This document shows, piece by piece, positions 6,170 through 63,041 of a stretch of DNA of 64,000 nucleotides (its first letter is position 1; each line of letters opens with the position of its first letter). The translations under genes and the position numbers were made by a program. The stretch is from an uncultured virus (IMG/VR IMGVR_UViG_3300002220_006884) (Duplodnaviria > Heunggongvirae > Uroviricota > Caudoviricetes). Under the pieces are notes generated by a model. That model was not told where the DNA came from, did no database searches, and saw nothing but the letters and a program-made list of their open reading frames with translations. The DNA is taken from IMG/VR virus record IMGVR_UViG_3300002220_006884; one strand, 5' to 3'.

Positions 6170-7279
6170 TTAAAGATAATGTTCATAAGTTTCTGTAGAT
6201 ATTAATCCAAGGTTATGTTTTAAAGTTAGATCGTCAATAAGGTTAAAGCCAAACTGCTTCATAATTTTTCTCATAGTATGAGTTATTTTTGTAGGGTCAG
6301 AATAAAGAATGGTTTCAATAATCTCAGGAGTAAAAATAAGATATTCCCTAATAGGGATTCTTTTACCATCAAGAGAGGGAACTAAAATTTGATTAATTAA
6401 AACTTTCAAATTAGAAACTAAATCAATAAAAGCAGAATTTTTTTCACCTTCAGGAAAAACACTTATTAATCTAGAGATAACTTCAGAAACGTTTCCAGTA
6501 TGAGTGGTTGAGAAAACAAGTGGTCCAGTCATAGCGGCATAAATAGATGCAGAAATGGTTTCATAATCTCTAGACTCTCCTACCAAAACAATGTCTGAGC
6601 GAGTTCTTAAAGAATTTCTAACACCGTCAGCAAAAGAAGGTATATTAATACCTATTTCCATTTGAGATATAGTGGCAGTAGGTAAATCTAAATAATCATA
6701 AGTAAATTCAATAGGTTGTTCTAAAGTGGAAACTTTCAAATGAGCATCTAGAGCACTTAATCTCCAAGCAAGAATGGAGGCGAGTAATGTTGATTTACCA
6801 GAGCCAGTAGGTCCAGAAACATAAATGCTCCCCCTTTTAGATTTAAATGCATTTAGTAAGTCATCAGATAAAGATAGGTTTTCTAACAAAGGTGGTTGAT
6901 TATTAATAACTCTAATAGCTAAAGAGAAACCTTTATCCCCCAAAACAGAAATAGATTTTAAGTTAACTCTAAATCTATAAGTTGTATCACGATTTTCCTT
7001 AACAAAATAAGCATAATCTATTTGTTGTCCAGAATTTAAAATACTAATAGCACCATCACTATGTAATTTAGAAATAATACCAATTAAATCAGATTTAGTT
7101 AATTTTTTATTTAAAACCTTATGTTTTTTGCCATAAATTTCACAAAATAAAAAATCTTCATTTTGAATAGTAATATCGGAAACATTATTTTTAACAGCCC
7201 AAATCAAAAACCCATCTAAATCCTGAGCAGTTAATCTTTCAGAATTAGATGGATAAGATATAGGAGTGAATAAAGACAT
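6170..7279 (-). CDS. dotB: DotB/TraJ-like type IVB secretion ATPase (PilT/GspE superfamily)
   Basis: SDITIQ...EIYG, YRFRVN, Walker A GPTGSGKST, EQPIEF, VGESRD and His box STTH; N-terminus recalls Legionella DotB rather than PilT. Confidence 0.8.
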   Translation of the reverse strand: MSLFTPISYPSNSERLTAQDLDGFLIWAVKNNVSDITIQNEDFLFCEIYGKKHKVLNKKLTKSDLIGIISKLHSDGAISILNSGQQIDYAYFVKENRDTTYRFRVNLKSISVLGDKGFSLAIRVINNQPPLLENLSLSDDLLNAFKSKRGSIYVSGPTGSGKSTLLASILAWRLSALDAHLKVSTLEQPIEFTYDYLDLPTATISQMEIGINIPSFADGVRNSLRTRSDIVLVGESRDYETISASIYAAMTGPLVFSTTHTGNVSEVISRLISVFPEGEKNSAFIDLVSNLKVLINQILVPSLDGKRIPIREYLIFTPEIIETILYSDPTKITHTMRKIMKQFGFNLIDDLTLKHNLGLISTETYEHYL

Positions 7280-19529: not shown

Positions 19530-19558
19530 GCACCGTCCTTTAGGTGGGTGTGATTCAC
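19530..19558 (+). mobile_element. Solo IS200/IS605 right-end remnant
   Basis: GCACCGTCCTTTAGGTGGGTGTGATTCAC, 28/29 identical to the tnpB element right end at 23883-23911. Confidence 0.8.
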
Positions 19559-21811: not shown

Positions 21812-23911
21812 CCTCTAGCAACGAAAAACATCGCCCTTTAGGGCGGTGATGTAAGTTGCACAAACCTTTAGGTTTGGCATTACTAATTATAAATTAACTC
21901 AATATTTAATTGACAAATTTAATTTAATTAAGTAATCTATATTGATGAAGAAATTAAAGAAATCAATCGTTAAAATTAAAAACATTAACTTGTTTAAACC
22001 AGATGTTAAGTCATCACGTGTTACGATTGATTCAAGAGTTTGTAATGTTGATAAATTTAATGAATTTTTCGCTTTAATTGATAATACTAAAAACTATAAA
22101 AATACTATTTCTCAATATTGTTACGATAACCTATTATCTTTAGTTTCAGATTACAAGCCTTTTCTTACTCATTATAAATCCCTAGATAATTCTCAGCTAA
22201 ACTCTTGGGAAAGACAAACTATATTCCAGGAGATTGCAGGGCATTATTCTGAGACTACTACCAGATATTTAGATAAAGCTAAATTCATTGTTTCTAAGCC
22301 TAAATCTAATATCAATAATATAGCCCTATTCATTCATAATCAGTCTAGTTTAAAATTAACCAATAATATTTATGCTTTAGATTTTAATATTGAAGATAAT
22401 CTAATTCAACTTACTACTTATTTAGATAAATATAACCTTGAATTAAATCATAATAAAAACTTATTAGAGAATTTAGTTCAATCTAAAAAAGATAATTCAA
22501 CTGATGATATTAATAAAGAAATAAGTAAATTAGAAAGATTAATTAAATCCTACAATAAACTAATTGCTAACTATCATGAAATTCAACAGTTTAAAAGTAA
22601 TAAACCATTTATTTACAATAGATTAATTCAGTTAATCATTGATAAAAAGCTAAGGTTCATCAGCAAGGTTAAATTAGCCATTTATCAAACTGGAACCCAT
22701 GCTAGGCACTTAAATAATGCTCAATTATCCATTGTGAAAGATTTATCTAATAAAGATTATCAATATTTTATTAAAGTTAGAAAAGTATCAACTCTTTCTT
22801 CTAGAGAACCTAAGTTAAATAATAAAACTAAAGATAATTATCAAGAATTACTAGATAAATATAATGAAGATAATTTCATCTATCTACCATTAATATTTAA
22901 TCAATCAAGATTGAAATCTATAGGTAAAAGTATAGATAATGTATTAATTAAAGATAATCCACAAATATTGATTAAATCAGAACAATTAAGAAATAACTCT
23001 AAGAGCAGAAAAATCCATATAATCTTTAATTATGAATCTATCAACCCTTTAGCTAATACTATTGAATCTAGCATTAAAAATAAAGTTAATATTAATCCAA
23101 GCGAATTAAATACATTAGGTTGTGATTTAAATTTAAAACACAATTTAATAGCTGATTCTAAAGGTCACACTTATAAAGATATATTAAATAACAAGAATAA
23201 ATTTATTAATAATTTAAATGAAATTGTAGAACTATTCAGTATCAAAACAGAAGAAAGAACAGTTAAACAAAAATACCGTTATGAGAAATTACTACGTAGT
23301 AATGAAAGTTTATTGAAAACTTATTTATCTGGATTAATCAAGGATTGGAAAAACAGTAATATCTTACATTTAGTATTTGAAGATTTGAATATACTGAATG
23401 ATAAAAGTTATTATGAACATAAAGGTATAAAGATTAAATATTCTAGACTATCTAGACTATTGAGATTAGGACAGATAAAACATTGGGTAGCTAGTATGGC
23501 AGAAAAACAAGGTATTTTTACCCATTTTATCAATCCAGCTTATACCAGTCAGGAATGTTCAGTTTGTCATTACATATCAACAACAAATAGGACAAAGCAG
23601 GAAGAATTTATCTGTAAAAATCCAGCCTGTGCTAATCACAAAGTGAAGATAAATGCAGACAGTAATGCAGCTAGAGTAATTAAGAGTAGATTAATAAATA
23701 AAACCATAAGAAATAAGTTAGGCAAAGATAATGTTTATCAATGCAGCAGAACTAAATCAATAAACTATAAGTTAATTAAAAATATAGTTGAAGATGAGTA
23801 TAAAATAGGGGTCGTTACTGAACTTCTCCCCAATGCTAAATTAGCTAAATCAAAAGAAGATAGTGTGAGAAATCACACAGAAGCACCGTCCTTTAGGTCG
23901 GTGTGATTCAC
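21812..23911 (+). mobile_element. IS200/IS605-family (IS1341-like, tnpB-only) element, 2100 bp
   Basis: Left-end hairpin CATCGCCCTTTAGGGCGGTG, right-end hairpin CACCGTCCTTTAGGTCGGTG ending TTCAC, inserted 3' of TTTAT with no target duplication. Confidence 0.88.
21942..23906 (+). CDS. tnpB: TnpB-like RNA-guided RuvC endonuclease, unusually long (654 aa)
   Basis: RuvC-I LGCDLN, RuvC-II VFEDL, YTSQECSVC...CKNPAC zinc finger, RuvC-III NADSNAA. Confidence 0.88.
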   Translation: MMKKLKKSIVKIKNINLFKPDVKSSRVTIDSRVCNVDKFNEFFALIDNTKNYKNTISQYCYDNLLSLVSDYKPFLTHYKSLDNSQLNSWERQTIFQEIAGHYSETTTRYLDKAKFIVSKPKSNINNIALFIHNQSSLKLTNNIYALDFNIEDNLIQLTTYLDKYNLELNHNKNLLENLVQSKKDNSTDDINKEISKLERLIKSYNKLIANYHEIQQFKSNKPFIYNRLIQLIIDKKLRFISKVKLAIYQTGTHARHLNNAQLSIVKDLSNKDYQYFIKVRKVSTLSSREPKLNNKTKDNYQELLDKYNEDNFIYLPLIFNQSRLKSIGKSIDNVLIKDNPQILIKSEQLRNNSKSRKIHIIFNYESINPLANTIESSIKNKVNINPSELNTLGCDLNLKHNLIADSKGHTYKDILNNKNKFINNLNEIVELFSIKTEERTVKQKYRYEKLLRSNESLLKTYLSGLIKDWKNSNILHLVFEDLNILNDKSYYEHKGIKIKYSRLSRLLRLGQIKHWVASMAEKQGIFTHFINPAYTSQECSVCHYISTTNRTKQEEFICKNPACANHKVKINADSNAARVIKSRLINKTIRNKLGKDNVYQCSRTKSINYKLIKNIVEDEYKIGVVTELLPNAKLAKSKEDSVRNHTEAPSFRSV

Positions 23912-25538: not shown

Positions 25539-25625
25539 GCCTTGGTGGTGAAATAGGTAGACACAAGAGACTTAAAATCTCTCGCTTTAAACGGCATGCC
25601 GGTTCGATTCCGGCCCAAGGCACCA
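25539..25625 (+). tRNA. tRNA-Leu(TAA)
   Basis: Class II cloverleaf, loop CTTAAAA, CCA; identical to 60923..61009. Confidence 0.95.
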
Positions 25626-25718
25626 TATTAAAATATATAAGTTATGTTCACGTGGAACATAGGTAACTGAAGGTGTCCTGAAGCTTGTATGTTTCAATAT
25701 GGTGTAGAATTTAGTAAA

Positions 25719-25786
25719 TGGACTTAACTTGATTTAATCGCAGAAAGTTGGCGAGTTAAGTGAAATAAACAACTGCTGTGAATTTT
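25719..25786 (+). ncRNA. Putative pseudoknot RNA, copy 1 (copy 2 at 28001..28067)
   Basis: Stem ACTTAACTTG/CGAGTTAAGT with compensatory changes in copy 2; loop GCAG..GTTG can pair with downstream CAACTGC. Confidence 0.55.
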
Positions 25787-25860
25787 GCGGGTAAGCTCAA
25801 GGTGAGACGCCAGCCTTCCAAGCTGTGCTGAGTGGAGTTCGATTCTCCCTACCCGCTCCA
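25787..25860 (+). tRNA. tRNA-Gly(TCC), atypical short D-arm
   Basis: Acceptor GCGGGTA/TACCCGC, U73, CCA, loop CTTCCAA. Confidence 0.75.
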
Positions 25861-25903
25861 AATTTAAGAGTTTTTGAAAAAGAATTTTTAAATTTGTAAA
25901 GTT

Positions 25904-26097
25904 AAAAAAAGCTGTACAAAGTGTAGAAGTTAGTATATAATCTCTACATGGTTGAGAAAGAAAGCGAAAGCAGAAATCTCAACAGTTCTTTTAAAATTGA
26001 AGATAATTAAAAGCCTTGGTGGTGAAATTGGTAGACACAAGAGACTTAAAATCTCTCGCTTAACGGCGTGCTGGTTCGATTCCAGTCCAAGGCACCA
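25904..26097 (+). repeat. About 195 bp direct repeat (promoter, leader hairpin, boxA, tRNA-Leu); second copy 27150..27342
   Basis: Near-identical sequence in both copies. Confidence 0.9.
26013..26097 (+). tRNA. tRNA-Leu(TAA)
   Basis: Class II cloverleaf, CCA; identical to 27258..27342. Confidence 0.95.
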
Positions 26098-26179
26098 AAT
26101 TAAAGCACATTGCCTTAACCTTAATTGGAGAGGTCGCAAGAACTAAATAGTGTGTTATAATTTGATATAAAGATTAATT

Positions 26180-26283
26180 CGGCCTATAGTTAAATGGATA
26201 TAACACGAGCCTTCTTAAGTATCTTTGGATAAAGGGTATTTAAGAAGCTTGTATTCCAAGTTCGATTCTTGGTGGGCCGACCA
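26180..26283 (+). tRNA. tRNA-Arg(TCT) with 29 nt insert (26216-26244) between positions 36 and 37
   Basis: Removing the insert gives CGAGC-CTTCTAA-GCTTG; normal D, T and acceptor arms, CCA. Confidence 0.8.
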
Positions 26284-26397
26284 AAACAAGTTCTAAGAAA
26301 TTAGAACAGCTAGTAGGATTGACTAGAAATTCAATCAAACTGTTTCAGAAGTCTTGAGTGAGAAACAGAATTAACTCTGATAGCTCTATGAGTTAAA
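26284..26397 (+). ncRNA. Four-hairpin RNA following the insert-bearing tRNA-Arg, copy 1
   Basis: Identical to 61309..61422; hairpins GTTCTAA/TTAGAAC, CTAGT/ACTAG, CTGTTTC/GAAACAG, TTAACTC/GAGTTAA. Confidence 0.6.
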
Positions 26398-26402
26398 TTT
26401 TT

Positions 26403-26476
26403 GCGGGATTAGTTTAATGGTAAAACAGCAGATTTCCAATCTTCGGTCATCAGTTCGATTCTGATATCCCGCTCCA
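26403..26476 (+). tRNA. tRNA-Gly(TCC)
   Basis: Cloverleaf, loop TTTCCAA, U73, CCA. Confidence 0.88.
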
Positions 26477-26521
26477 ACTTTAAGTGTTTTTAAAATAAGA
26501 ATTTTTAAAATTGGATTTAAT

Positions 26522-26606
26522 GCCTTTGTGGTGAAATTGGTAGACACGCCTGACTCAAAATCAGGTTCCGCAAGGAGTGACGGTTCGAGTCCGTCCAAAG
26601 GCACCA
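26522..26606 (+). tRNA. tRNA-Leu(CAA)
   Basis: Class II cloverleaf, loop CTCAAAA, CCA. Confidence 0.95.
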
Positions 26607-26741
26607 TATTGAAGTATGCCCATCGTGGACTCTGTGAAACTCAGATAGTATATAAGGCGGTTCCTGCAAGCCTTGCACTGAAAATGCTGAGTAAGGTGTA
26701 TTTCAATATGGTGATAAAATACTGCACCAAACAGTAGAATT

Positions 26742-26808
26742 AATATTGTGGGCCAGTTGGTAGGCTTTTGTTGGTAAATGTCGTGGGTTCAAATCCCATC
26801 AATAATTA
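26742..26808 (+). ncRNA. tRNA-like element lacking a proper anticodon arm and CCA
   Basis: D-arm GCC-AGTTGGTA-GGC and T-arm GTGGG-TTCAAAT-CCCAT. Confidence 0.45.
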
Positions 26809-26821
26809 ATTCATCATTATA

Positions 26822-26961
26822 GGTTATTAGTTATACAAACATGCAGTTACGAGTGGTTAGTATGAACCTAAGAAATGCTGCCTAATAAGTAATTGAAAAA
26901 TTACCGCTTGCGGGCGTAAGGTTAGGGTGCAGGTATGGATTACTAAATATAACTAATAATT
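26822..26961 (+). ncRNA. Stem-enclosed candidate ncRNA
   Basis: 14 bp closing stem GGTTATTAGTTATA/TATAACTAATAATT around a GC-richer non-coding core. Confidence 0.45.
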
Positions 26962-26963
26962 TT

Positions 26964-27150
26964 TAGTGCTTTTTAGGCTGGTTGCGGCAACAGTCAGAAG
27001 GTACTGAGATTTGGCTTCGGAATTGAGTAACTTTGCCGAGTGAAAAATGAAGATGTTGCATTCGTCTAGCGGAAGGACTCCCCCACACAAGGGGGAAACA
27101 TAGGTTCGAATCCTATATGCAAATTTCAAAGATCAGCCTAAAAAGCATTA
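26964..27150 (+). ncRNA. Stem-enclosed RNA containing a tRNA-like domain (about 27055-27123)
   Basis: 20 bp closing stem with 3 G-U pairs; inner D-arm, CCCCC-ACACAA-GGGGG arm, T-arm ATAGG-TTCGAAT-CCTAT, no CCA. Confidence 0.55.
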
Positions 27151-27257
27151 AAAAAGCTGTACAAAGTGTAGAAGTTAATATATAATCTCTACATGGTTGA
27201 GAAAGAAGCGAAAGCATAAATCTTAACAAGTTCTTTTAAAATTGAAGATAATCAAAA

Positions 27258-27342
27258 GCCTTGGTGGTGAAATTGGTAGACACAAGAGACTTAAAATCTC
27301 TCGCTTAACGGCGTGCTGGTTCGATTCCAGTCCAAGGCACCA
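27258..27342 (+). tRNA. tRNA-Leu(TAA)
   Basis: Class II cloverleaf, CCA. Confidence 0.95.
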
Positions 27343-27466
27343 TATTAAAAGGTATTAATACAACTGGCAGACTTGTTCGGAGAAAGTGAAATCCAGAAGA
27401 ACGTTTAATGCTTTTTAATATGGTTGAGAAATAACTATTCTCCCCATGCAGAATCATGATTCTGCT

Positions 27467-27560
27467 GGCTCATAGTGATGAAATAGGTAGACATAGGCCA
27501 GTAAAACGGTCGGGTGAAATAAACACACCGTAAGGGTTCAACTCCCTTCTAAATGAGTTA
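27467..27560 (+). pseudogene. Degenerate tRNA-Leu-like element
   Basis: Leu-type D-arm GTGATGAAATAGGTAGACA, long variable arm, T-arm AAGGG-TTCAACT-CCCTT; bulged acceptor, aberrant anticodon loop, no CCA. Confidence 0.5.
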
Positions 27561-27806
27561 TAATGGTTTAATGATTAAAGCAGTCAAATAGGTTGGTTGC
27601 CATAAGGTTGAAAATTGAGTGTTGATTCCACTTGAAATTCTTACTCCTTATGTACGGGTTCAAGTCCCGTAGTGTTTAAATAGAGTACATAGAATCAATA
27701 TCGTGGTAATCTCTAACTGTGCTGAAAGAATACAATTGAAGTAAGCAATCATTGAAAAAAGCTGTACAAAAGTAGAAAATTAAAGTATAATTCTCTCTGT
27801 AGTAAC

Positions 27807-27906
27807 GCAAGACATGGCTTGGTGATTGTTCATGTCTGAGATAGCTTAAATCACATGCAAGACAGAGCTTGGTTGTTGAATCTGTCTAAGATAGCTTAAA
27901 CAATCC
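27807..27906 (+). ncRNA. Two tandem 50 nt H-type pseudoknot repeats
   Basis: Exact 50 nt period; both stems show compensatory substitutions between copies. Confidence 0.65.
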
Positions 27907-27920
27907 GCGTAAGAATAAAT

Positions 27921-27996
27921 GGTCTAGTAGCTCAATTGGAAGAGCAGCGCCCTCTAAAAGCGTTGGTTGTGGGATCGTACCCCATCTAGATCACCA
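27921..27996 (+). tRNA. Putative amber suppressor tRNA (anticodon CTA)
   Basis: 76 nt cloverleaf, GCGCC-CTCTAAA-AGCGT, CCA; atypical T-loop ATCGTAC. Confidence 0.75.
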
Positions 27997-28000
27997 GTTT

Positions 28001-28067
28001 TGGACTCAATTTGATTTTATTGCAGAAAGTTGGCGAATTGAGTGAAATAAACAACTGCTGTAAATTT
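28001..28067 (+). ncRNA. Putative pseudoknot RNA, copy 2
   Basis: Homolog of 25719..25786 with stem ACTCAATTTG/CGAATTGAGT. Confidence 0.55.
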
Positions 28068-28153
28068 GGCTTGTTAGCTTATGTGGGAAAGCAGTCGCCT
28101 CTAAAACGACCCTAGAAGGATTCGAAAGGATTCGAACTCCTTACAAGCCACCA
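28068..28153 (+). tRNA. Second putative amber suppressor tRNA (CTA) with 10 nt internal duplication
   Basis: GTCGC-CTCTAAA-ACGAC, acceptor GGCTTGT/ACAAGCC, CCA; AAGGATTCGA repeated twice. Confidence 0.65.
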
Positions 28154-28162
28154 TATATATCC

Positions 28163-28194
28163 GAAGGCAGATCAGAAATGGTCTGCCTTTTTTT
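28163..28194 (+). terminator. Intrinsic terminator ending tRNA cluster 1
   Basis: AAGGCAGATCA-GAAA-TGGTCTGCC followed by a T run. Confidence 0.85.
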
Positions 28195-28267
28195 ATTTAT
28201 ACTTTATAAATCTATATTGTGCATTAATGTGCAGTAAATAAATGATATAAACCATTTTCTAGATCAA

Positions 28268-28523: not shown

Positions 28524-30725
28524 TTAAATTTTGTTTCTTTGTTTTAAATTTATAGTTAATTCGGTTTTTACCGTAGTATATTCCTTACATAAATTATTCC
28601 CTTTTTCAAATTCTGATAATAAATCAAAAATTGATTTTCCATCTTCATTAAATGCATAAATTGATATATTTTTTTCTTTTAGTTTATTTAGTCCAGAAGT
28701 AATGGTTTGTAATTCATAAGTTTTTTTATCAAAATTTAAATCTTTATTATTAGATTGGGATAAAAATATACAAAATGAATTAATTATTTCTTCGTTAGAA
28801 AATTTTATTTTATTGTCACTATAATTTAAAATTGAACGAGATAATTGAAATTGTTTTAAGTTTGAAAAAGAATTCAGTTTTATATTTGAATTCTTAAATT
28901 TATTATTAATATATTTGTTTGCATTAATAGATAATAGATGGCATTCTATGCTTTTACCATCAATATTAATATTAAGAAAATCTTGCATTGCATTTTTTTG
29001 TATATAAAAATTATGTTCTTTTTGGAATAAAAACTTTTCTAAATTTAAGAAATATTCTTCTATTGTTTTTATTGGTTCTTTCCATCTATTGGCACATTTT
29101 TTTGTTTTTATTTGTTCTATAATTTTCAATCCTAAATTATAATATTTATTCTCAATAAAATTTAATTTTTCTTTAATGTTTTCATCAAAATAAAATGGTC
29201 TGTTAAATTTTGGAACAAATAATTGAGATAAAATAGACGATCTTTCTCTAAAAATAAATGTTTGGTCACTTGAAAGCAAGTGATTGTTGTCAAGTAAGTG
29301 TTGAATTGCATGTGATTCTCTTATATCTTTATTGGTTCCAATACAATAACGATTTAGGCTTTCTAAATATTTACGATCTAGTGCAGAGTTATTAAAATAT
29401 TTATAATTAACTTTTTGAGTTAATATTTCTGGCTCTATTGTTGCAGATAAGCAAGAGAATACAAAATTATTTTTTTCAATAAAATACTCTTTTATATTGG
29501 TTCTTTCATTATCATTAAAATTATTATTAAATTTTTTTTCTAAATTTGATAGAATATAATTTATAATGAAATAGCAATTACTTTCTTCTGTTGTGTGGTT
29601 GTTATATTTTAAACTTATATTAGTCCATTCAACATTAGTTGAATCTGGATAAAAGTTGCATTTTATTTTTAAAATTTGATCTAACTCATTATTCTGAATG
29701 CAGTTTATAAATTTTTTAAAATAATCTGAATCTAATATTTTTTCACTAGAAATAATATCTTTATATTTTTCTAAATAATTAGTAAATTCATTAATTGTAC
29801 TTAATATAATATCTTTATTTTCTTTATCTTTTAAAAAAGATTGGAAATCTTTTGTTTTAGTTTGTATTATTGATAATTGTGTTAATTTTAATTTTTTTGT
29901 GTGTTGAATTGCTAAAAATTTTTCATTCTTATATTGAAATGACGATCTTTGTGTTGACATATTGGTATTTTGTTTTTCTAATTTAACTAAAGAATAGAAA
30001 AAAGAATCAATTAAAAAATCAATATCATAATTAATTATTAAATTCTTTTTAAGATAAATACAGTTTTTTTCTTCAGTGTTTCCAAATAAAAAATTTTCTA
30101 ATCTTATTTTTCTATTTTTACTCACTAAAAAAAAATCATTATTTTCAATTAGTAGTTCAATATTATTAGAATCTTTGGGAATATCTTTCATCCACTTATC
30201 GAAATTGTTCTTAAAAATATTGGTTCGTTTGGTAATAATATTTGGAGATGCAAATCCTTCTTTTTTGCCTTCTTCTTCAATAAATTGATTTATTTCTGGA
30301 TAATATTTTTTTAATTCGTTTTCTTTAAATGAAGGTATTTGATTAATTTTCTCAATATCATTATCTGTTAATTTAATAAATCCTAAAGAATGTAAAAATG
30401 TAAAAAGATTGTTAATAATGTTGGGATTACTTAAAAAAATTTCAGTATATCCATCTGGTGAATTTTTCATATATGATTCATATTCAACAAAATTAAATTT
30501 ATCATACATTAATTTAAGATTTAAAAATTGAGCATTTAAAATTTCATGAATAAACTTTTCAACAGATTCCGCATTTACTTCTTCTACTTCAAATGATGTA
30601 ACTTCTTTAAATGGAGTTGGATAATGTTTTGCAAATTGTTTTATTCTGTGTGAAGAAGATTTTTTTGTGTATCCAATCTTCATCAATCCCAAATCAGTTG
30701 CCGCTATATATACAATATTGTTCAT
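28524..30725 (-). CDS. Large protein with N-terminal GIY-YIG/T5orf172-like nuclease domain
   Basis: VYIA...MKIGYT...RIKQF...VEKFIH...YTEIF; ends KQRNKI. Confidence 0.65.
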   Translation of the reverse strand: MNNIVYIAATDLGLMKIGYTKKSSSHRIKQFAKHYPTPFKEVTSFEVEEVNAESVEKFIHEILNAQFLNLKLMYDKFNFVEYESYMKNSPDGYTEIFLSNPNIINNLFTFLHSLGFIKLTDNDIEKINQIPSFKENELKKYYPEINQFIEEEGKKEGFASPNIITKRTNIFKNNFDKWMKDIPKDSNNIELLIENNDFFLVSKNRKIRLENFLFGNTEEKNCIYLKKNLIINYDIDFLIDSFFYSLVKLEKQNTNMSTQRSSFQYKNEKFLAIQHTKKLKLTQLSIIQTKTKDFQSFLKDKENKDIILSTINEFTNYLEKYKDIISSEKILDSDYFKKFINCIQNNELDQILKIKCNFYPDSTNVEWTNISLKYNNHTTEESNCYFIINYILSNLEKKFNNNFNDNERTNIKEYFIEKNNFVFSCLSATIEPEILTQKVNYKYFNNSALDRKYLESLNRYCIGTNKDIRESHAIQHLLDNNHLLSSDQTFIFRERSSILSQLFVPKFNRPFYFDENIKEKLNFIENKYYNLGLKIIEQIKTKKCANRWKEPIKTIEEYFLNLEKFLFQKEHNFYIQKNAMQDFLNINIDGKSIECHLLSINANKYINNKFKNSNIKLNSFSNLKQFQLSRSILNYSDNKIKFSNEEIINSFCIFLSQSNNKDLNFDKKTYELQTITSGLNKLKEKNISIYAFNEDGKSIFDLLSEFEKGNNLCKEYTTVKTELTINLKQRNKI

Positions 30726-31917: not shown

Positions 31918-33171
31918 GTGGCATATAAAAATCCAAAAAAAGAAAAATATTTAAAAAACTGTATAGATAAAGCAAAGATATACAATGGCTTATGTGTGTC
32001 TAAAGAGTTTGTTAATTCTAGAACTAAATTAGATTGGAAGTGCTGTAATGAAAAACATCCAATATTTTCTGATTATTATACAAATGTAGTAAATGGAATG
32101 AGTTGGTGTAAAAGATGTGAGCCACTTATATCTGATAAATTAGAGTTGGCTAAATTTTTAGCTAAATCTAAAGGTGGTGAAATTTTAGAAGAAAAATATT
32201 TAGGTTCTACAATAAGACATAAGTGGAAGTGTAAGGAAAATCATATTTTTGAAGTAAATTATAATGCTGCTGTACTTAGAGGTAGATGGTGTGTGTTTTG
32301 TGCAAATCAAGTAACAGAAAAAACAAATGTTTTAGAAGAAGGTAGTAACAATAGAATTGATAGATTAGATATTGCAAAAGAATTTGCAGCAAAAAAAGGT
32401 GGAAAATGTTTGTCAGAATATTATAAAAATAGCTCTTCAAAATTATTATGGAAATGTAGTAATGAAAAACATAAAGAATTTGAATCAACTTATAATTGTG
32501 TAATTAACCAAAGTAGATGGTGTCCAGAATGTAGTGAGTTTCATATACATGAAGAAAGAGTAAGAAATATATTAAACAATATTTTTAATGCTAAATTTAT
32601 TAAAAGTTATCCTAATTGGAATATAAATATTAAAACAGGAAAAATCTTAGAATTAGATGGGTTTTCTGAAGAATTAAATATTGCTTTTGAATATCAAGGT
32701 AGACAGCATTTTGAAGCCGCATTTAATAAAAGCATAGAAGAAGTGTTGATGCAAAAAGAAAGAGATAAAGTTAAAAAAGAAAATTGTAATAATAACAATA
32801 TTAAATTAATAATAATTAAAGCGAATCGTCACAGAGATAATTATAAAACTACTATGACTGCCATATTAGATGGTATAAAAAAAATAGGAATTAAGTTGCC
32901 ATTAAATCCATTGTTAGATAAAAAAAACGAAGAAATATATAATAAAACAACAAATTTTGTAACAGAGAAAAAACTAGAAGAATGTGTAGAATATGCTAAG
33001 TTAAGAAATGGAGTTTGTTTAAGTGAATCATATGTAAGTTCAAGAGAAAAAATGCTATGGAAATGTGAAAATAAAGATCATCATTCTTGGTTAAGAAGTT
33101 ATGAGGGAACTATAAAAAATAAAACCTGGTGTCCATCTTGTAGGAAAAAAGATAATTTTACCAAATGTTGA
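31918..33171 (+). CDS. Putative endonuclease with repeated zinc-ribbon units and a PD-(D/E)xK/Vsr-like core (paralog of 61821..63041)
   Basis: Repeats G-x-CLS-x-x-Y...W-x-C...H...WCP-x-C; LELDGF...IAFEYQG-x-QH. Confidence 0.7.
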   Translation: MAYKNPKKEKYLKNCIDKAKIYNGLCVSKEFVNSRTKLDWKCCNEKHPIFSDYYTNVVNGMSWCKRCEPLISDKLELAKFLAKSKGGEILEEKYLGSTIRHKWKCKENHIFEVNYNAAVLRGRWCVFCANQVTEKTNVLEEGSNNRIDRLDIAKEFAAKKGGKCLSEYYKNSSSKLLWKCSNEKHKEFESTYNCVINQSRWCPECSEFHIHEERVRNILNNIFNAKFIKSYPNWNINIKTGKILELDGFSEELNIAFEYQGRQHFEAAFNKSIEEVLMQKERDKVKKENCNNNNIKLIIIKANRHRDNYKTTMTAILDGIKKIGIKLPLNPLLDKKNEEIYNKTTNFVTEKKLEECVEYAKLRNGVCLSESYVSSREKMLWKCENKDHHSWLRSYEGTIKNKTWCPSCRKKDNFTKC

Positions 33172-57016: not shown

Positions 57017-57091
57017 CGGTCTATAGTACAACGGATAGTGCAGTTGCCTTCTAAGCAATGAATGTGGGTTCGATTCCTGCTAGACCGACCA
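57017..57091 (+). tRNA. tRNA-Arg(TCT), uninterrupted
   Basis: GTTGC-CTTCTAA-GCAAT, cloverleaf, CCA, terminator after. Confidence 0.92.
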
Positions 57092-61203: not shown

Positions 61204-61308
61204 CTGCCGATAGCTCAGATGGATAGAGCATCTGCCTTCTTAAGTATCTTTTCTTAAGGGTATTTAAGAAGCAGATGGTCGGGGGTTCGAATCCCTCTCG
61301 GCAGGCCA
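61204..61308 (+). tRNA. tRNA-Arg(TCT) with 28 nt insert (61241-61268) between positions 36 and 37
   Basis: Removing the insert gives TCTGC-CTTCTAA-GCAGA; otherwise canonical, CCA. Confidence 0.8.
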
Positions 61309-61422
61309 AAACAAGTTCTAAGAAATTAGAACAGCTAGTAGGATTGACTAGAAATTCAATCAAACTGTTTCAGAAGTCTTGAGTGAGAAACAGAATTAAC
61401 TCTGATAGCTCTATGAGTTAAA
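61309..61422 (+). ncRNA. Four-hairpin RNA following the insert-bearing tRNA-Arg, copy 2
   Basis: Identical to 26284..26397. Confidence 0.6.
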
Positions 61423-61427
61423 CTTTT

Positions 61428-61501
61428 GCGGGTAAGCACGAGGTGTGTCGCCAGCCTTCCAAGCTGCGCAGAGTGGAATTCGATTTTCCCTACCCGCTCC
61501 A
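61428..61501 (+). tRNA. tRNA-Gly(TCC), atypical short D-arm
   Basis: Homolog of 25787..25860 with compensatory T-stem change (GGAA/TTCC). Confidence 0.72.
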
Positions 61502-61820: not shown

Positions 61821-63041
61821 TTAAGATTTATTTTTTATTTTTGCGAGATTACTTTTTTCTTTTCCACATTCTGGACACCAACTACCTTTTTGAATATTTT
61901 GAAATGCTGAACTCCAAGTTGGGTGTAAGTGATTTTGACACTTCCATTCCATTTTAGTTTCAGAATTAATATAGTTGGTAGATAAGCACCATCCACCTTT
62001 ATTTATTGCAAGCTGTTTAGCTTTTTCTAAATAATTGTTTTGATGATTAGTATGCTTGTTTAAAAGAGATTCAATGATTGAAATATCAATTTTTTTATTA
62101 ATTTCAATATTGTTATACTTCAATAATTGCAAGATATAATTGATAATTTGTTGAGAATCATCTAATTTAAAATTATCATCAATAATAATTAGTTTCACCT
62201 GGTTATCAATACAATTTTTCTTTTTTATTGAATCTTTAAATTGAATATATTCAAGTTCTTCTTTTGTTTTTCCAAAAGATCCTACCTTATAATGATGTTC
62301 ACCTTGAAATTCAAAAGCAATTTTTAATTCTTCGCAATAACCATCTAATTCTAACCTTTTATTGGTTTTAGGATTAATGTTCCATTTTGGGCGAGATTTT
62401 TCAAATTTAACTTCCAATAAATATTCTAATATATCTCTAATTTTATGTTCTTTATAATAATAGGCAGAACATTGCGGACACCAACTATTATCTAATACAA
62501 CACTTTTATATTTAGTGTTCCATATATGATTATTTGCACATTTCCATATTAATTCTTTTTTAGCTCCGATATATTCAGTAGATAGGCAGTCTCCACCTTT
62601 GTTTTTGGCATATTCTTGGGCTAATTTTAATCCATTTTTATTTAGTGATCTTGTTGCATTTTTTAACTCATTACATTCTGGACACCAATGTTGACCAATT
62701 AAAATATTGTATTTTGCCTCCCAAGTATGACCATGAGAGCATTCCCATTTTAATTTAGAAATAGAATTAACATATTCAATAGAAAGACATTTTCCACCTT
62801 TAGCTAAAGCATATTGTTGTGCTCTTTTTATCCCTTCTTCTTTTGTAAAGTAACCTGCACATTGTGGACACCAAGAACCAAACATAACATTTTTAGTTGG
62901 AGCATCCCATTCATGTCCATGAGAACATTTCCAGGTTAGTTTTGAATTAGCTCCAAGATATTCAGTAGAAAGGCAATCACCACCTTTATTTTGGGCATAT
63001 TCTTTAGCCTTTGCTAATCTTAATATTTGGTCATTATTCAT
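61821..63041 (-). CDS. Putative endonuclease with zinc-ribbon repeats and PD-(D/E)xK/Vsr-like core
   Basis: Four GG-x-CLS...W-x-C...H...WCP-x-C repeats; LELDGYC...IAFEFQG-x-HH. Confidence 0.72.
   Translation of the reverse strand: MNNDQILRLAKAKEYAQNKGGDCLSTEYLGANSKLTWKCSHGHEWDAPTKNVMFGSWCPQCAGYFTKEEGIKRAQQYALAKGGKCLSIEYVNSISKLKWECSHGHTWEAKYNILIGQHWCPECNELKNATRSLNKNGLKLAQEYAKNKGGDCLSTEYIGAKKELIWKCANNHIWNTKYKSVVLDNSWCPQCSAYYYKEHKIRDILEYLLEVKFEKSRPKWNINPKTNKRLELDGYCEELKIAFEFQGEHHYKVGSFGKTKEELEYIQFKDSIKKKNCIDNQVKLIIIDDNFKLDDSQQIINYILQLLKYNNIEINKKIDISIIESLLNKHTNHQNNYLEKAKQLAINKGGWCLSTNYINSETKMEWKCQNHLHPTWSSAFQNIQKGSWCPECGKEKSNLAKIKNKS

Follow-up and report, generated by a model that had tools for sequence, protein, structure and literature searches.

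Two tRNA-Arg(UCU) genes in the window, the 64,000-nucleotide stretch of DNA analysed here, are interrupted in the anticodon loop by short hairpin inserts, and sequence comparison places these inserts in what would be a distinct and apparently undescribed class of tRNA intron, outside the group I, group II, BHB/TSEN and Lak-type introns. The reading preferred here, with a probability of about 0.55, is that host RNase III would excise the hairpin and an ATP-dependent RNA ligase would reseal the tRNA. The original prediction had proposed a new kind of mini-intron whose removal might depend on a dedicated downstream RNA or on a nuclease plus ligase. The short hairpin class does prove distinct from the known intron types, and nuclease plus ligase is the best supported of the proposed mechanisms, through geometry, covariation, box-like pairs and the enzyme genes of other carriers.

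Two interrupted tRNA-Arg(UCU) genes and their setting

The two tRNA-Arg genes (26180-26283 and 61204-61308) had been described as having different bodies that carry near-identical inserts between positions 36 and 37, and both genes and inserts are real (Table 1). The insert stems are identical in the two copies, which differ in the loop alone (5 versus 4 nt). Both genes are missed by ARAGORN and score 49.3 and 55.4 bits with the Rfam tRNA model; once the insert is taken out, a tRNA-Arg(UCU) is called. The predicted fold-back of both genes is far beyond chance, with whole-gene z-scores of -5.5 and -6.1 and 0 of 200 shuffles as good. A contig from sequencing run X6 equals the window sequence right across the insert. 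Run X7 (DNA, from another study) supplied a natural allele, a 242-nt contig spanning 26068-26338 from which precisely 29 nt are missing at 26216, and this allele fixes the 36/37 boundary independently. Of the four runs compared with 25950-26650, the other two, X9 and X11 (labelled as RNA but probably DNA), showed zero depth across the intron, which is no sign of its absence there. Other splice registers, which would give the anticodons AAG, UAG or UCG, were rejected, as only 36/37 agrees with the natural deletions and gives a 2-nt stagger. The exact insert pattern was found in 0 metagenome and 0 viral contigs. Looser palindrome patterns returned 35 viral and 89 genome loci, of which a loose T-loop filter left 11, none of them a tRNA by eye.

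Table 1. Positions of the interrupted tRNA-Arg(UCU) genes and associated features in the window
Feature	Positions	Strand	Remarks
Candidate sigma70-like promoter, TGTACA-17-TATAAT	25913..25941	+	consensus match alone
tRNA-Arg(UCU) copy 1, 5' exon	26180..26215	+	positions 1-36; A20 identity element; ends CU-UCU
Copy 1 hairpin intron, 29 nt	26216..26244	+	11 bp, 5-nt loop, 2-nt 3' overhang AG pairing C35/U36; from fold and natural deletion in run X7
tRNA-Arg(UCU) copy 1, 3' exon	26245..26283	+	A37 to encoded CCA
114-nt spacer RNA, copy 1	26284..26397	+	no Rfam family; independent of intron
Intron-free tRNA-Arg(UCU), same replicon	57017..57091	+	
tRNA-Arg(UCU) copy 2, 5' exon	61204..61240	+	different body
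Copy 2 hairpin intron, 28 nt	61241..61268	+	11 bp, tetraloop, 2-nt 3' overhang; size and shape of RNase III minimal product
tRNA-Arg(UCU) copy 2, 3' exon	61269..61308	+	with CCA
114-nt spacer RNA, copy 2	61309..61422	+	identical to copy 1

The window is AT-rich (28% GC) and has the look of accessory DNA from a very large phage or an element of that kind. Its two tRNA clusters lie amid many small ORFs of no assigned role, and some ORFs match phage families. The promoter form of Table 1 occurs in four copies in the cluster, the listed copy lying upstream of a tRNA-Leu / tRNA-Arg / tRNA-Gly run. Near-identical DNA is present in runs from hydrocarbon, mine-drainage and landfill sources; tblastn with two window proteins gave matches in cultured phages that were all below 60% identity, none of them close. 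No ligase or RNase III was found among 66 scanned ORFs of the window. Endonuclease-like genes adjoin both tRNA clusters (28524-30725, 31918-33171 and 61821-63041; MUG113, and DUF4379/HNH phrog_559), those downstream of the clusters being 28524-30725 (MUG113) and 61821-63041 (DUF4379/HNH).

Several other features of the window deserve mention. Two CUA-anticodon tRNA genes (27921-27996 and 28068-28153) are amber suppressor-like, and TAG is the stop of only 2 of 64 window ORFs; an alternative genetic code in which TAG is read through raises coding cover merely from 0.73 to 0.76, and recoding is therefore not shown. Degenerate tRNA-like stretches in cluster 1 (26742-26807, 27055-27124, 27475-27560 and 27610-27678) are consistent with reshuffling of the cluster via recombination between tRNA parts. 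Two tRNA-Gly(UCC)-like genes (25787-25861 and 61427-61501) have a bulged anticodon stem (CGCCAGC/GCUGNGC) and are missed by ARAGORN; the former scores 28.8 bits with Rfam, just below threshold, and their counterpart in the relative L307 is interrupted by an intron of the class treated below. A TnpB/Cas12f-like gene of 654 aa lies at 21942-23906, and a 29-nt hairpin end, which we take to resemble an IS200/IS605 end, is found three times, at 19530, 23883 and 39347. A PilT-like type II/IV secretion ATPase is encoded at 6170-7279 in phage-like surroundings.

The 114-nt element directly behind the intron genes had been put forward as a dedicated splint or ribozyme. It is indeed identical in its two copies (114/114) and missing behind the insert-free gene at 57017, and it does hold the junction sequence and its complement. 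The four-hairpin structure drawn for it is possible at -22.2 kcal/mol but is not the minimum fold, which reaches -23.7, and against shuffled sequences its folding is unremarkable (z -1.29, with 21 of 200 as good). The proposed dedication to splicing fails, as insert and element are found apart from each other at several loci. The X7 allele lacks the insert, yet its contig enters the element, and a second X7 contig covers 26309-26397; an intron-free DNA allele thus exists and retains the element. The closest relative found, L307, has the gene order of cluster 2 (Leu, spacer, Val, and Arg with a homologous insert), and behind its Arg gene, in place of the 114-nt element, comes the other spacer RNA of the window (87% identity to 25719-25786). 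In an alignment of six Aeromonas phages at the orthologous locus, which follows gene 57B, exactly the insert is missing from phiAS5, whose downstream RNA is common to 4 of the 5 insert-bearing Aeromonas relatives, phiWae14 having a different one. The splint word TTAGAA occurs within 120 nt downstream at 0 of 17 class loci, and the splint duplex (-4.0) is weaker than its own enclosing hairpin (-5.4). Because insert and element occur independently, the element is a spacer RNA, copied along with the tRNA 3' end and separate from the splicing device.

Comparisons of the element with T4 rnaC and rnaD, the Aeh1 spacer and other window spacers revealed no sequence likeness. Rfam returned no ribozyme over 26284-26397, the sole entry being a DicF tail overlap (E 3.9, far below threshold); motif 1 of the element occurs at 7 viral loci, none beside a tRNA, and motif 2 at none. 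BLAST of 26170-26410 returned only tRNA-exon pieces in 13 phage records and 0 plasmids. In T4, tRNA-Arg is followed by species 2 RNA (rnaD, 119 nt; NC_000866), again an element of stable-RNA size (~115-120 nt) directly behind tRNA-Arg(UCU), but the T4 gene is intron-free and rnaD is dissimilar to the window element (shuffle p 0.37), so that T4 offers an architectural precedent only. Within 26310-26335, an alternative helix or a pseudoknot could form between the hairpin 2 loop, GGATTG, and a CAATC that lies shortly after it, and a variant of the element in run X6 has one base inserted at 26326. A second repeated spacer RNA of ~68 nt lies before tRNA genes at 25719-25786, 28001-28067 and L307 210-277; its copies are 87-90% identical, conserved in L307, and match no Rfam family.

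A class of 36/37 hairpin introns in phages and spirochaetes

Genes for tRNA-Arg(UCU) with any insert of 15-45 nt after the anticodon were sought with the insert sequence unconstrained, and 64 viral and at least 117 metagenome loci (at least 181 in all) were returned. Among the matches listed, 120 loci pass tRNA stem filters and 61 of 181 are dropped; 103 of these 120 inserts have an initial A, which allows placement at the canonical 37/38 site, and they look like archaeal and eukaryote-virus introns. The 17 inserts that cannot be placed at 37/38 behave alike among the matches listed: all end in AG, as does only 1 of the 103 others, and all 17 pair best in a single register, whose 3' overhang of two terminal bases pairs with C35 and U36, with 8-10 of the first 10 pairs formed and a hairpin of ~11 bp. 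None of the 45 A-start inserts of at least 24 nt among the matches listed reaches 8 pairs in the 2-nt-overhang register. A second scan, which imposed Y..AG, adds at least 6 loci, with 107 of its 120 rows and the chance-like locus L353 left out, and BLAST added cultured Aeromonas phages. The class totals at least 23 unique introns in 11 families, 25-43 nt long, of which 4 of the 23 come from the scan that imposed Y..AG; the commonest length is 28 nt (9 of 23).

The stem is maintained by compensatory change. In an alignment of ten 28-nt introns, 90% of 110 cells are paired and 8 of the 11 pairs change on both sides; the covariation score of 0.725 compares with 0.271+-0.044 for shuffled alignments (0 of 500 as high) and 0.10-0.17 for slid registers. 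Two members interrupt other tRNAs: the intron of a tRNA-Thr(UGU) gene (L555) ends in AC, and that of a tRNA-Gly(UCC) gene (L307), 37 nt long, ends in GG. The overhang, AG for Arg, therefore tracks anticodon bases 35-36. Both introns have U.G and U-A at pairs 9 and 10. The 22-row set that includes the Thr and Gly members is one from which 2 non-tRNA rows were dropped. A scan of non-Arg tRNAs found at least 76 unique tRNA-like genes with inserts, 3 of them flagged by geometry, with only L555 at 36/37, and a BLAST search with the Thr gene returned nothing full-length from cultured sources. In the sub-family formed by L350, L365, L390 and L397, a 4-bp stem is followed by a small internal loop, beyond which the U.G/U-A pairs are displaced by a single base in the 5' strand, a layout as in bulged RNase III substrates. 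Four further loci (L452, L497, L521 and L531) are tRNA-like with a CC-CUC start and share a 26-27-nt insert that does not fit the class.

ARAGORN misses 25 of 25 class genes; with the intron removed, tRNA calling identifies 25 of 25 as the expected tRNA (0 of 25 before removal). Exact intron-free alleles exist in run X7, phiAS5 and the spirochaete genome G517. The same intron is found in different tRNA bodies, namely in the two window genes, in L152/L192 versus L155, and in L173 versus L194, and it therefore probably moves between bodies by recombination in short shared flanks. The intron is probably a tolerated passenger, and its persistence may reflect neutrality, a shield against homing endonucleases or integrases, or the timing of tRNA supply.

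Cultured carriers include the Aeromonas phages Aeh1 and PX29. The complete genome of Aeh1 has a single match to GCCTTCT..AAGC within 30 nt, the intron gene, and PX29 has no match to the intron-free tRNA-Arg(UCU) pattern. Their records label these genes as a 105-nt tRNA-Glu (Aeh1) and a two-piece tRNA-Lys (PX29); the available part of Nolan 2006 (PMC1524935) lists Aeh1 with Glu(UUC) and without Arg(UCU). The word "intron" is absent from the main text of PMC7162821, and no description of the class was found in the openly searchable literature.

Four metagenome loci lie in a spirochaete-type chromosomal context, near FlaA-like, RelA-TPR and V-ATPase genes. Among 401 genomes of the order centred on the spirochaete G114 (presumably Treponematales), 3 hold this tRNA body: G539 with a 43-nt intron, G738 with a 28-nt intron, and G517, which has the same body and is intron-free. 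Two search patterns, for which G517 and G770 served as positive controls, found the intron gene as the only tRNA-Arg(UCU) in the draft assemblies G539 and G738. AGA codons need tRNA-Arg(UCU), and splicing would thus be essential in these two bacteria, if the drafts miss no copy. The replicon of the window also has the intact copy at 57017, so that splicing may be dispensable there. Within a treponeme genus of 40 genomes, 24 have intron-free genes only, 2 intron genes only, 1 both kinds and 13 no match; G770 carries two intron alleles and one free allele. A Spirochaetota sample gave 0 of 401 genomes with a match to the intron pattern or to the L229 tRNA body, and in the family of G114, where 35 of 42 genomes gave 36 matches, all 30 examined loci are intron-free. 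Among cells the class is rare.

RNase III and RNA ligases as candidate splicing enzymes

In the precursor as modelled, the last two bases of the intron would pair with anticodon bases 35-36, and U33 and U34 with A38 and A37, to give a single helix that would carry one splice site on each strand, with an offset of two base pairs. This fold is a continuous helix, in keeping with the earlier observation that no bulge-helix-bulge is present. Host RNase III would bind the intron side, where pairs 1-4 would form the proximal box and pairs 9-10 the distal box, and would cut both strands with a 2-nt stagger. A hairpin of 26-31 nt (up to 43 nt) would be freed; the 5' exon would end in a 3'-OH at position 36, and the 3' exon would begin with a 5'-phosphate at A37. 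These ends could then be joined without end-healing by an ATP-dependent RNA ligase of the Rnl1, Rnl2 or DRB0094 type, to restore a normal anticodon loop. We infer the cutting, the ligation and the identity of the enzymes from the sequences of the genes and their carriers.

RNase III leaves 2-nt 3' overhangs with 3'-OH and 5'-phosphate ends, according to the available part of PMC3867540. In the available text of Pertzev and Nicholson 2006 (PMC1540722), cleavage of the minimal E. coli RNase III substrate releases a product of 28 nt, in which an 11-bp helix is closed by a tetraloop whose sequence is not constrained. The determinants are a proximal box of GC, W, AU, W, with its fourth pair adjoining the cut, and a distal box of UA, UG; a single set of boxes suffices. 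The positions assigned to the boxes, pairs 1-4 (proximal) and 9-10 (distal), were derived from that text, with the middle box (U12:G27, C13:G26 in a 34-nt RNA with a 6-nt leader) and the 22 bp between distal-box ends as anchors. The 28-nt product (RNA 6, of the minimal substrate uR1.1) is, on the same partial source, like the window intron in its 11-bp helix, tetraloop, 2-nt stagger, UA/UG box and A-U-rich proximal box. The window intron matches 5 of its 6 box pairs, the sixth being G.U for G-C, but here the hairpin lies within a tRNA anticodon loop, and its flanks must be rejoined.

The box-like pairs of the window intron are U-A, A-U, A-U and G.U at pairs 1-4, U.G at pair 9 (26224/26234) and U-A at pair 10 (26225/26233). 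Across the class, 15 of 23 unique introns, from 7 of 11 families, have U.G at pair 9 (p=1.5e-4 in a permutation test that allows for any column, a value that, like the others given here, is optimistic because the intron families are related), and 19 of 23, from 8 of 11 families, have U-A at pair 10; in the 28-nt set the figures are 9 of 10 and 10 of 10. Conservation of a wobble pair in a stem that otherwise covaries freely is hard to explain without a protein that would read it. Both window copies have 11 pairs between cut and loop, at least 11 bp being expected, and position 11 is paired in 18 of 23 introns. Opposite-strand sites with a 2-nt 3' stagger are found in 17 of 17 among the matches listed, and in both window copies and the Thr and Gly members. 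Pair 3 is W-W in 19 of 23 introns class-wide, a scarcity of G-C that is not significant (permutation p 0.16-0.20). On the sequence-level tests of stagger, helix length and distal box, the insert passes as a putative RNase III substrate.

Some features fit the E. coli rules less closely. Pair 1 is C-G in 9 of 23 introns and 6 of 11 families, and C-G at pair 1 is a catalytic antideterminant of E. coli RNase III that slows the reaction 7-14-fold (PMC1540722, available text). Cutting might be confined to one strand, since the exon side offers no more than a short helix in which C32 is bulged. Conservation of the distal box does not extend across species, and the box is without effect for the Aquifex enzyme.

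As to the enzymes, all four near-complete carrier phages encode both PF09414 and PF09511 ligases, one of them of the Rnl1 type and one of the Rnl2/DRB0094 type, three of these four phages being related and T4-like. An RNase III domain was found in 0 of 15 phage records, and the cutter would thus be that of the host. The spirochaetes G539 and G738 encode RNase III and a DRB0094-like ligase, although in the treponeme genus this ligase is present in 18 of 40 genomes regardless of the intron. Genes for a DRB0094-like ligase and RNase III are convergent within ~600 bases at L616 445-2838 (G738) and L618 961-2907 (G517), an arrangement not seen in G539. The archaeal-type endonuclease EndA (PF01974) was found in 0 of 5 carrier records, G539 and G738 included, with 4 archaeal controls positive. 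RtcB was considered as a common ligase and set aside, being found in merely 1 of the 5 carriers tested. The co-occurrence of enzymes and intron is compatible with the splicing model, as weak agreement and not as proof.

Known introns and competing explanations

That the inserts are not normal group I or group II introns is borne out by their length of 28-29 nt and the lack of an Rfam intron match. Group I introns of the Arg.5Ug type are alike in their site after position 36, with U before and G at the end of the intron in Arg cases, but the class described here has no catalytic core and no U.G pair in P1 and is far shorter (the survey took introns of >=50 bp; Williams 2020, bioRxiv 10.1101/2020.01.27.920355). 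No Rfam match to a group I core (P3-P9) was obtained in the window at the gathering threshold or in 25600-28200 at E<=5. At the P1 position of the 5' splice site, U36 pairs with A, and C36 of the Gly member pairs with G; the terminal base of the intron is G in all Arg and Gly members and C in the Thr member, where C is complementary to base 35. Group II features (domain V, GUGYG...AY ends) are absent from the inserts, which are too short, have no Rfam match and end Y...AG.

Archaeal BHB/EndA and eukaryotic TSEN introns are likewise short, removed by proteins and followed by ligation, but they differ from this class in site (37/38 instead of 36/37), in having a bulged rather than a continuous helix, and in their ends, which are predicted here to be 3'-OH/5'-phosphate. 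Cleavage at BHB/TSEN introns leaves a cyclic phosphate and a 5'-OH. The "enigmatic" tRNA introns of Lak megaphages share with this class the anticodon-loop site, presence/absence alleles and the lack of a known splicing route (Devoto 2019, PMC6784885, available part). A further likeness is a Thr intron that lies one base away from its predicted site. In 20 rows of Table S6 of that source, however, the Lak inserts are mostly ~80-140 nt with T-loop or tRNA-like parts, as against simple hairpins of 25-43 nt, and inspection by eye finds no 11-bp fold-back with an anticodon-pairing overhang. The intervening sequences (IVS) of 23S rRNA are also optional hairpin inserts removed by RNase III, but, in the available part of PMC8708148, they are of 100-200 nt, lie in rRNA and go unligated, whereas ligation is needed for a tRNA. 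By analogy, the intron would act like an rRNA intervening sequence that must be resealed.

Among the explanations that compete with RNase III excision and resealing, the one that deserves most weight, though it is unlikely, keeps the splicing and ligation and assigns the cut to another dsRNA nuclease with the same 2-nt stagger, such as Mini-III or an unrecognised phage or host enzyme. Geometry, covariation and the sole-copy facts would serve it equally well, and the frequent C-G at pair 1 and the poor exon-side half-site fit the E. coli RNase III rules badly. However, the UA/UG pairs at 9/10 and the 28-nt, 11-bp size match the distal box and product of that very enzyme, neither an RNase III domain (15 phage records) nor EndA (5 carrier records) turned up, and the presence of the class in unrelated phages and in spirochaetes favours a universal host enzyme. 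Less likely again is excision by RNase III with the halves left unjoined, as nicked tRNA or tRNA halves that might, for example, act as decoys and distract anticodon nucleases or sensors. Phages can often do without their tRNAs, and the window holds a spare intact copy; excised 23S rRNAs do stay fragmented (PMC8708148, available part). A break at 36/37 would stop decoding, however, yet an interrupted gene is the sole tRNA-Arg(UCU) found in G539 and G738, with a body as in the intron-free G517; the exons are canonical in 25 of 25 genes, and the tested carriers encode ligases for 3'-OH/5'-phosphate ends.

There is a slim chance that the insert is never removed, being either a locked tRNA mimic or a device acting at the DNA level only, by interrupting the anticodon-loop site that a homing endonuclease or integrase would target. 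Endonuclease-like genes do stand behind both window clusters, an integrase-like fragment lies beside the gene at L268 (by sequence reading), and T4 SegB reportedly acts in the tRNA region; the fixed 2-nt stagger, the overhang that tracks the anticodon, the U.G at pair 9 and the bacterial sole-copy status would all be left unexplained. Protection at the DNA level could, nonetheless, be a reason why a spliced intron spreads. Least probable, and largely refuted, is action of the 114-nt RNA in cis as splint or ribozyme, or splicing of the insert, as a group I remnant, by a core in trans. To its credit are the identical element with junction and complement behind both intron copies and, from Williams 2020 (bioRxiv 10.1101/2020.01.27.920355), the U and G that border Arg introns at the Arg.5Ug site. 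Against it, insert and element occur separately, U36 pairs with A and not with G, Rfam detects no group I core, and the rule of U and omega-G is broken by the Thr intron, which ends in C, and by the Gly exon, which ends in C.

Excision by RNase III followed by resealing would, in its widest form, be an undescribed tRNA splicing route in bacteria and phages, with 36/37 hairpin introns cut by RNase III, sealed by ligases of the Rnl1, Rnl2 or DRB0094 type, and essential for AGA decoding in some treponemes; the odds for this wider statement appear about even. Bacterial tRNA introns are held to be self-splicing, and protein-based tRNA splicing is held to be archaeal or eukaryotic. If true, the route would represent a new tRNA splicing chemistry, the combination of RNase III with a 3'-OH/5'-phosphate ligase, in which the ends made by RNase III are rejoined. 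The natural substrates of Rnl2 and DRB0094-type ligases are, to our knowledge, unclear, and the route would give a physiological job to phage Rnl2 and bacterial DRB0094-type ligases. The class itself exposes an annotation blind spot for intron-bearing tRNA genes, and, if the model is true, tRNA supply in its carriers would depend on RNase III activity.
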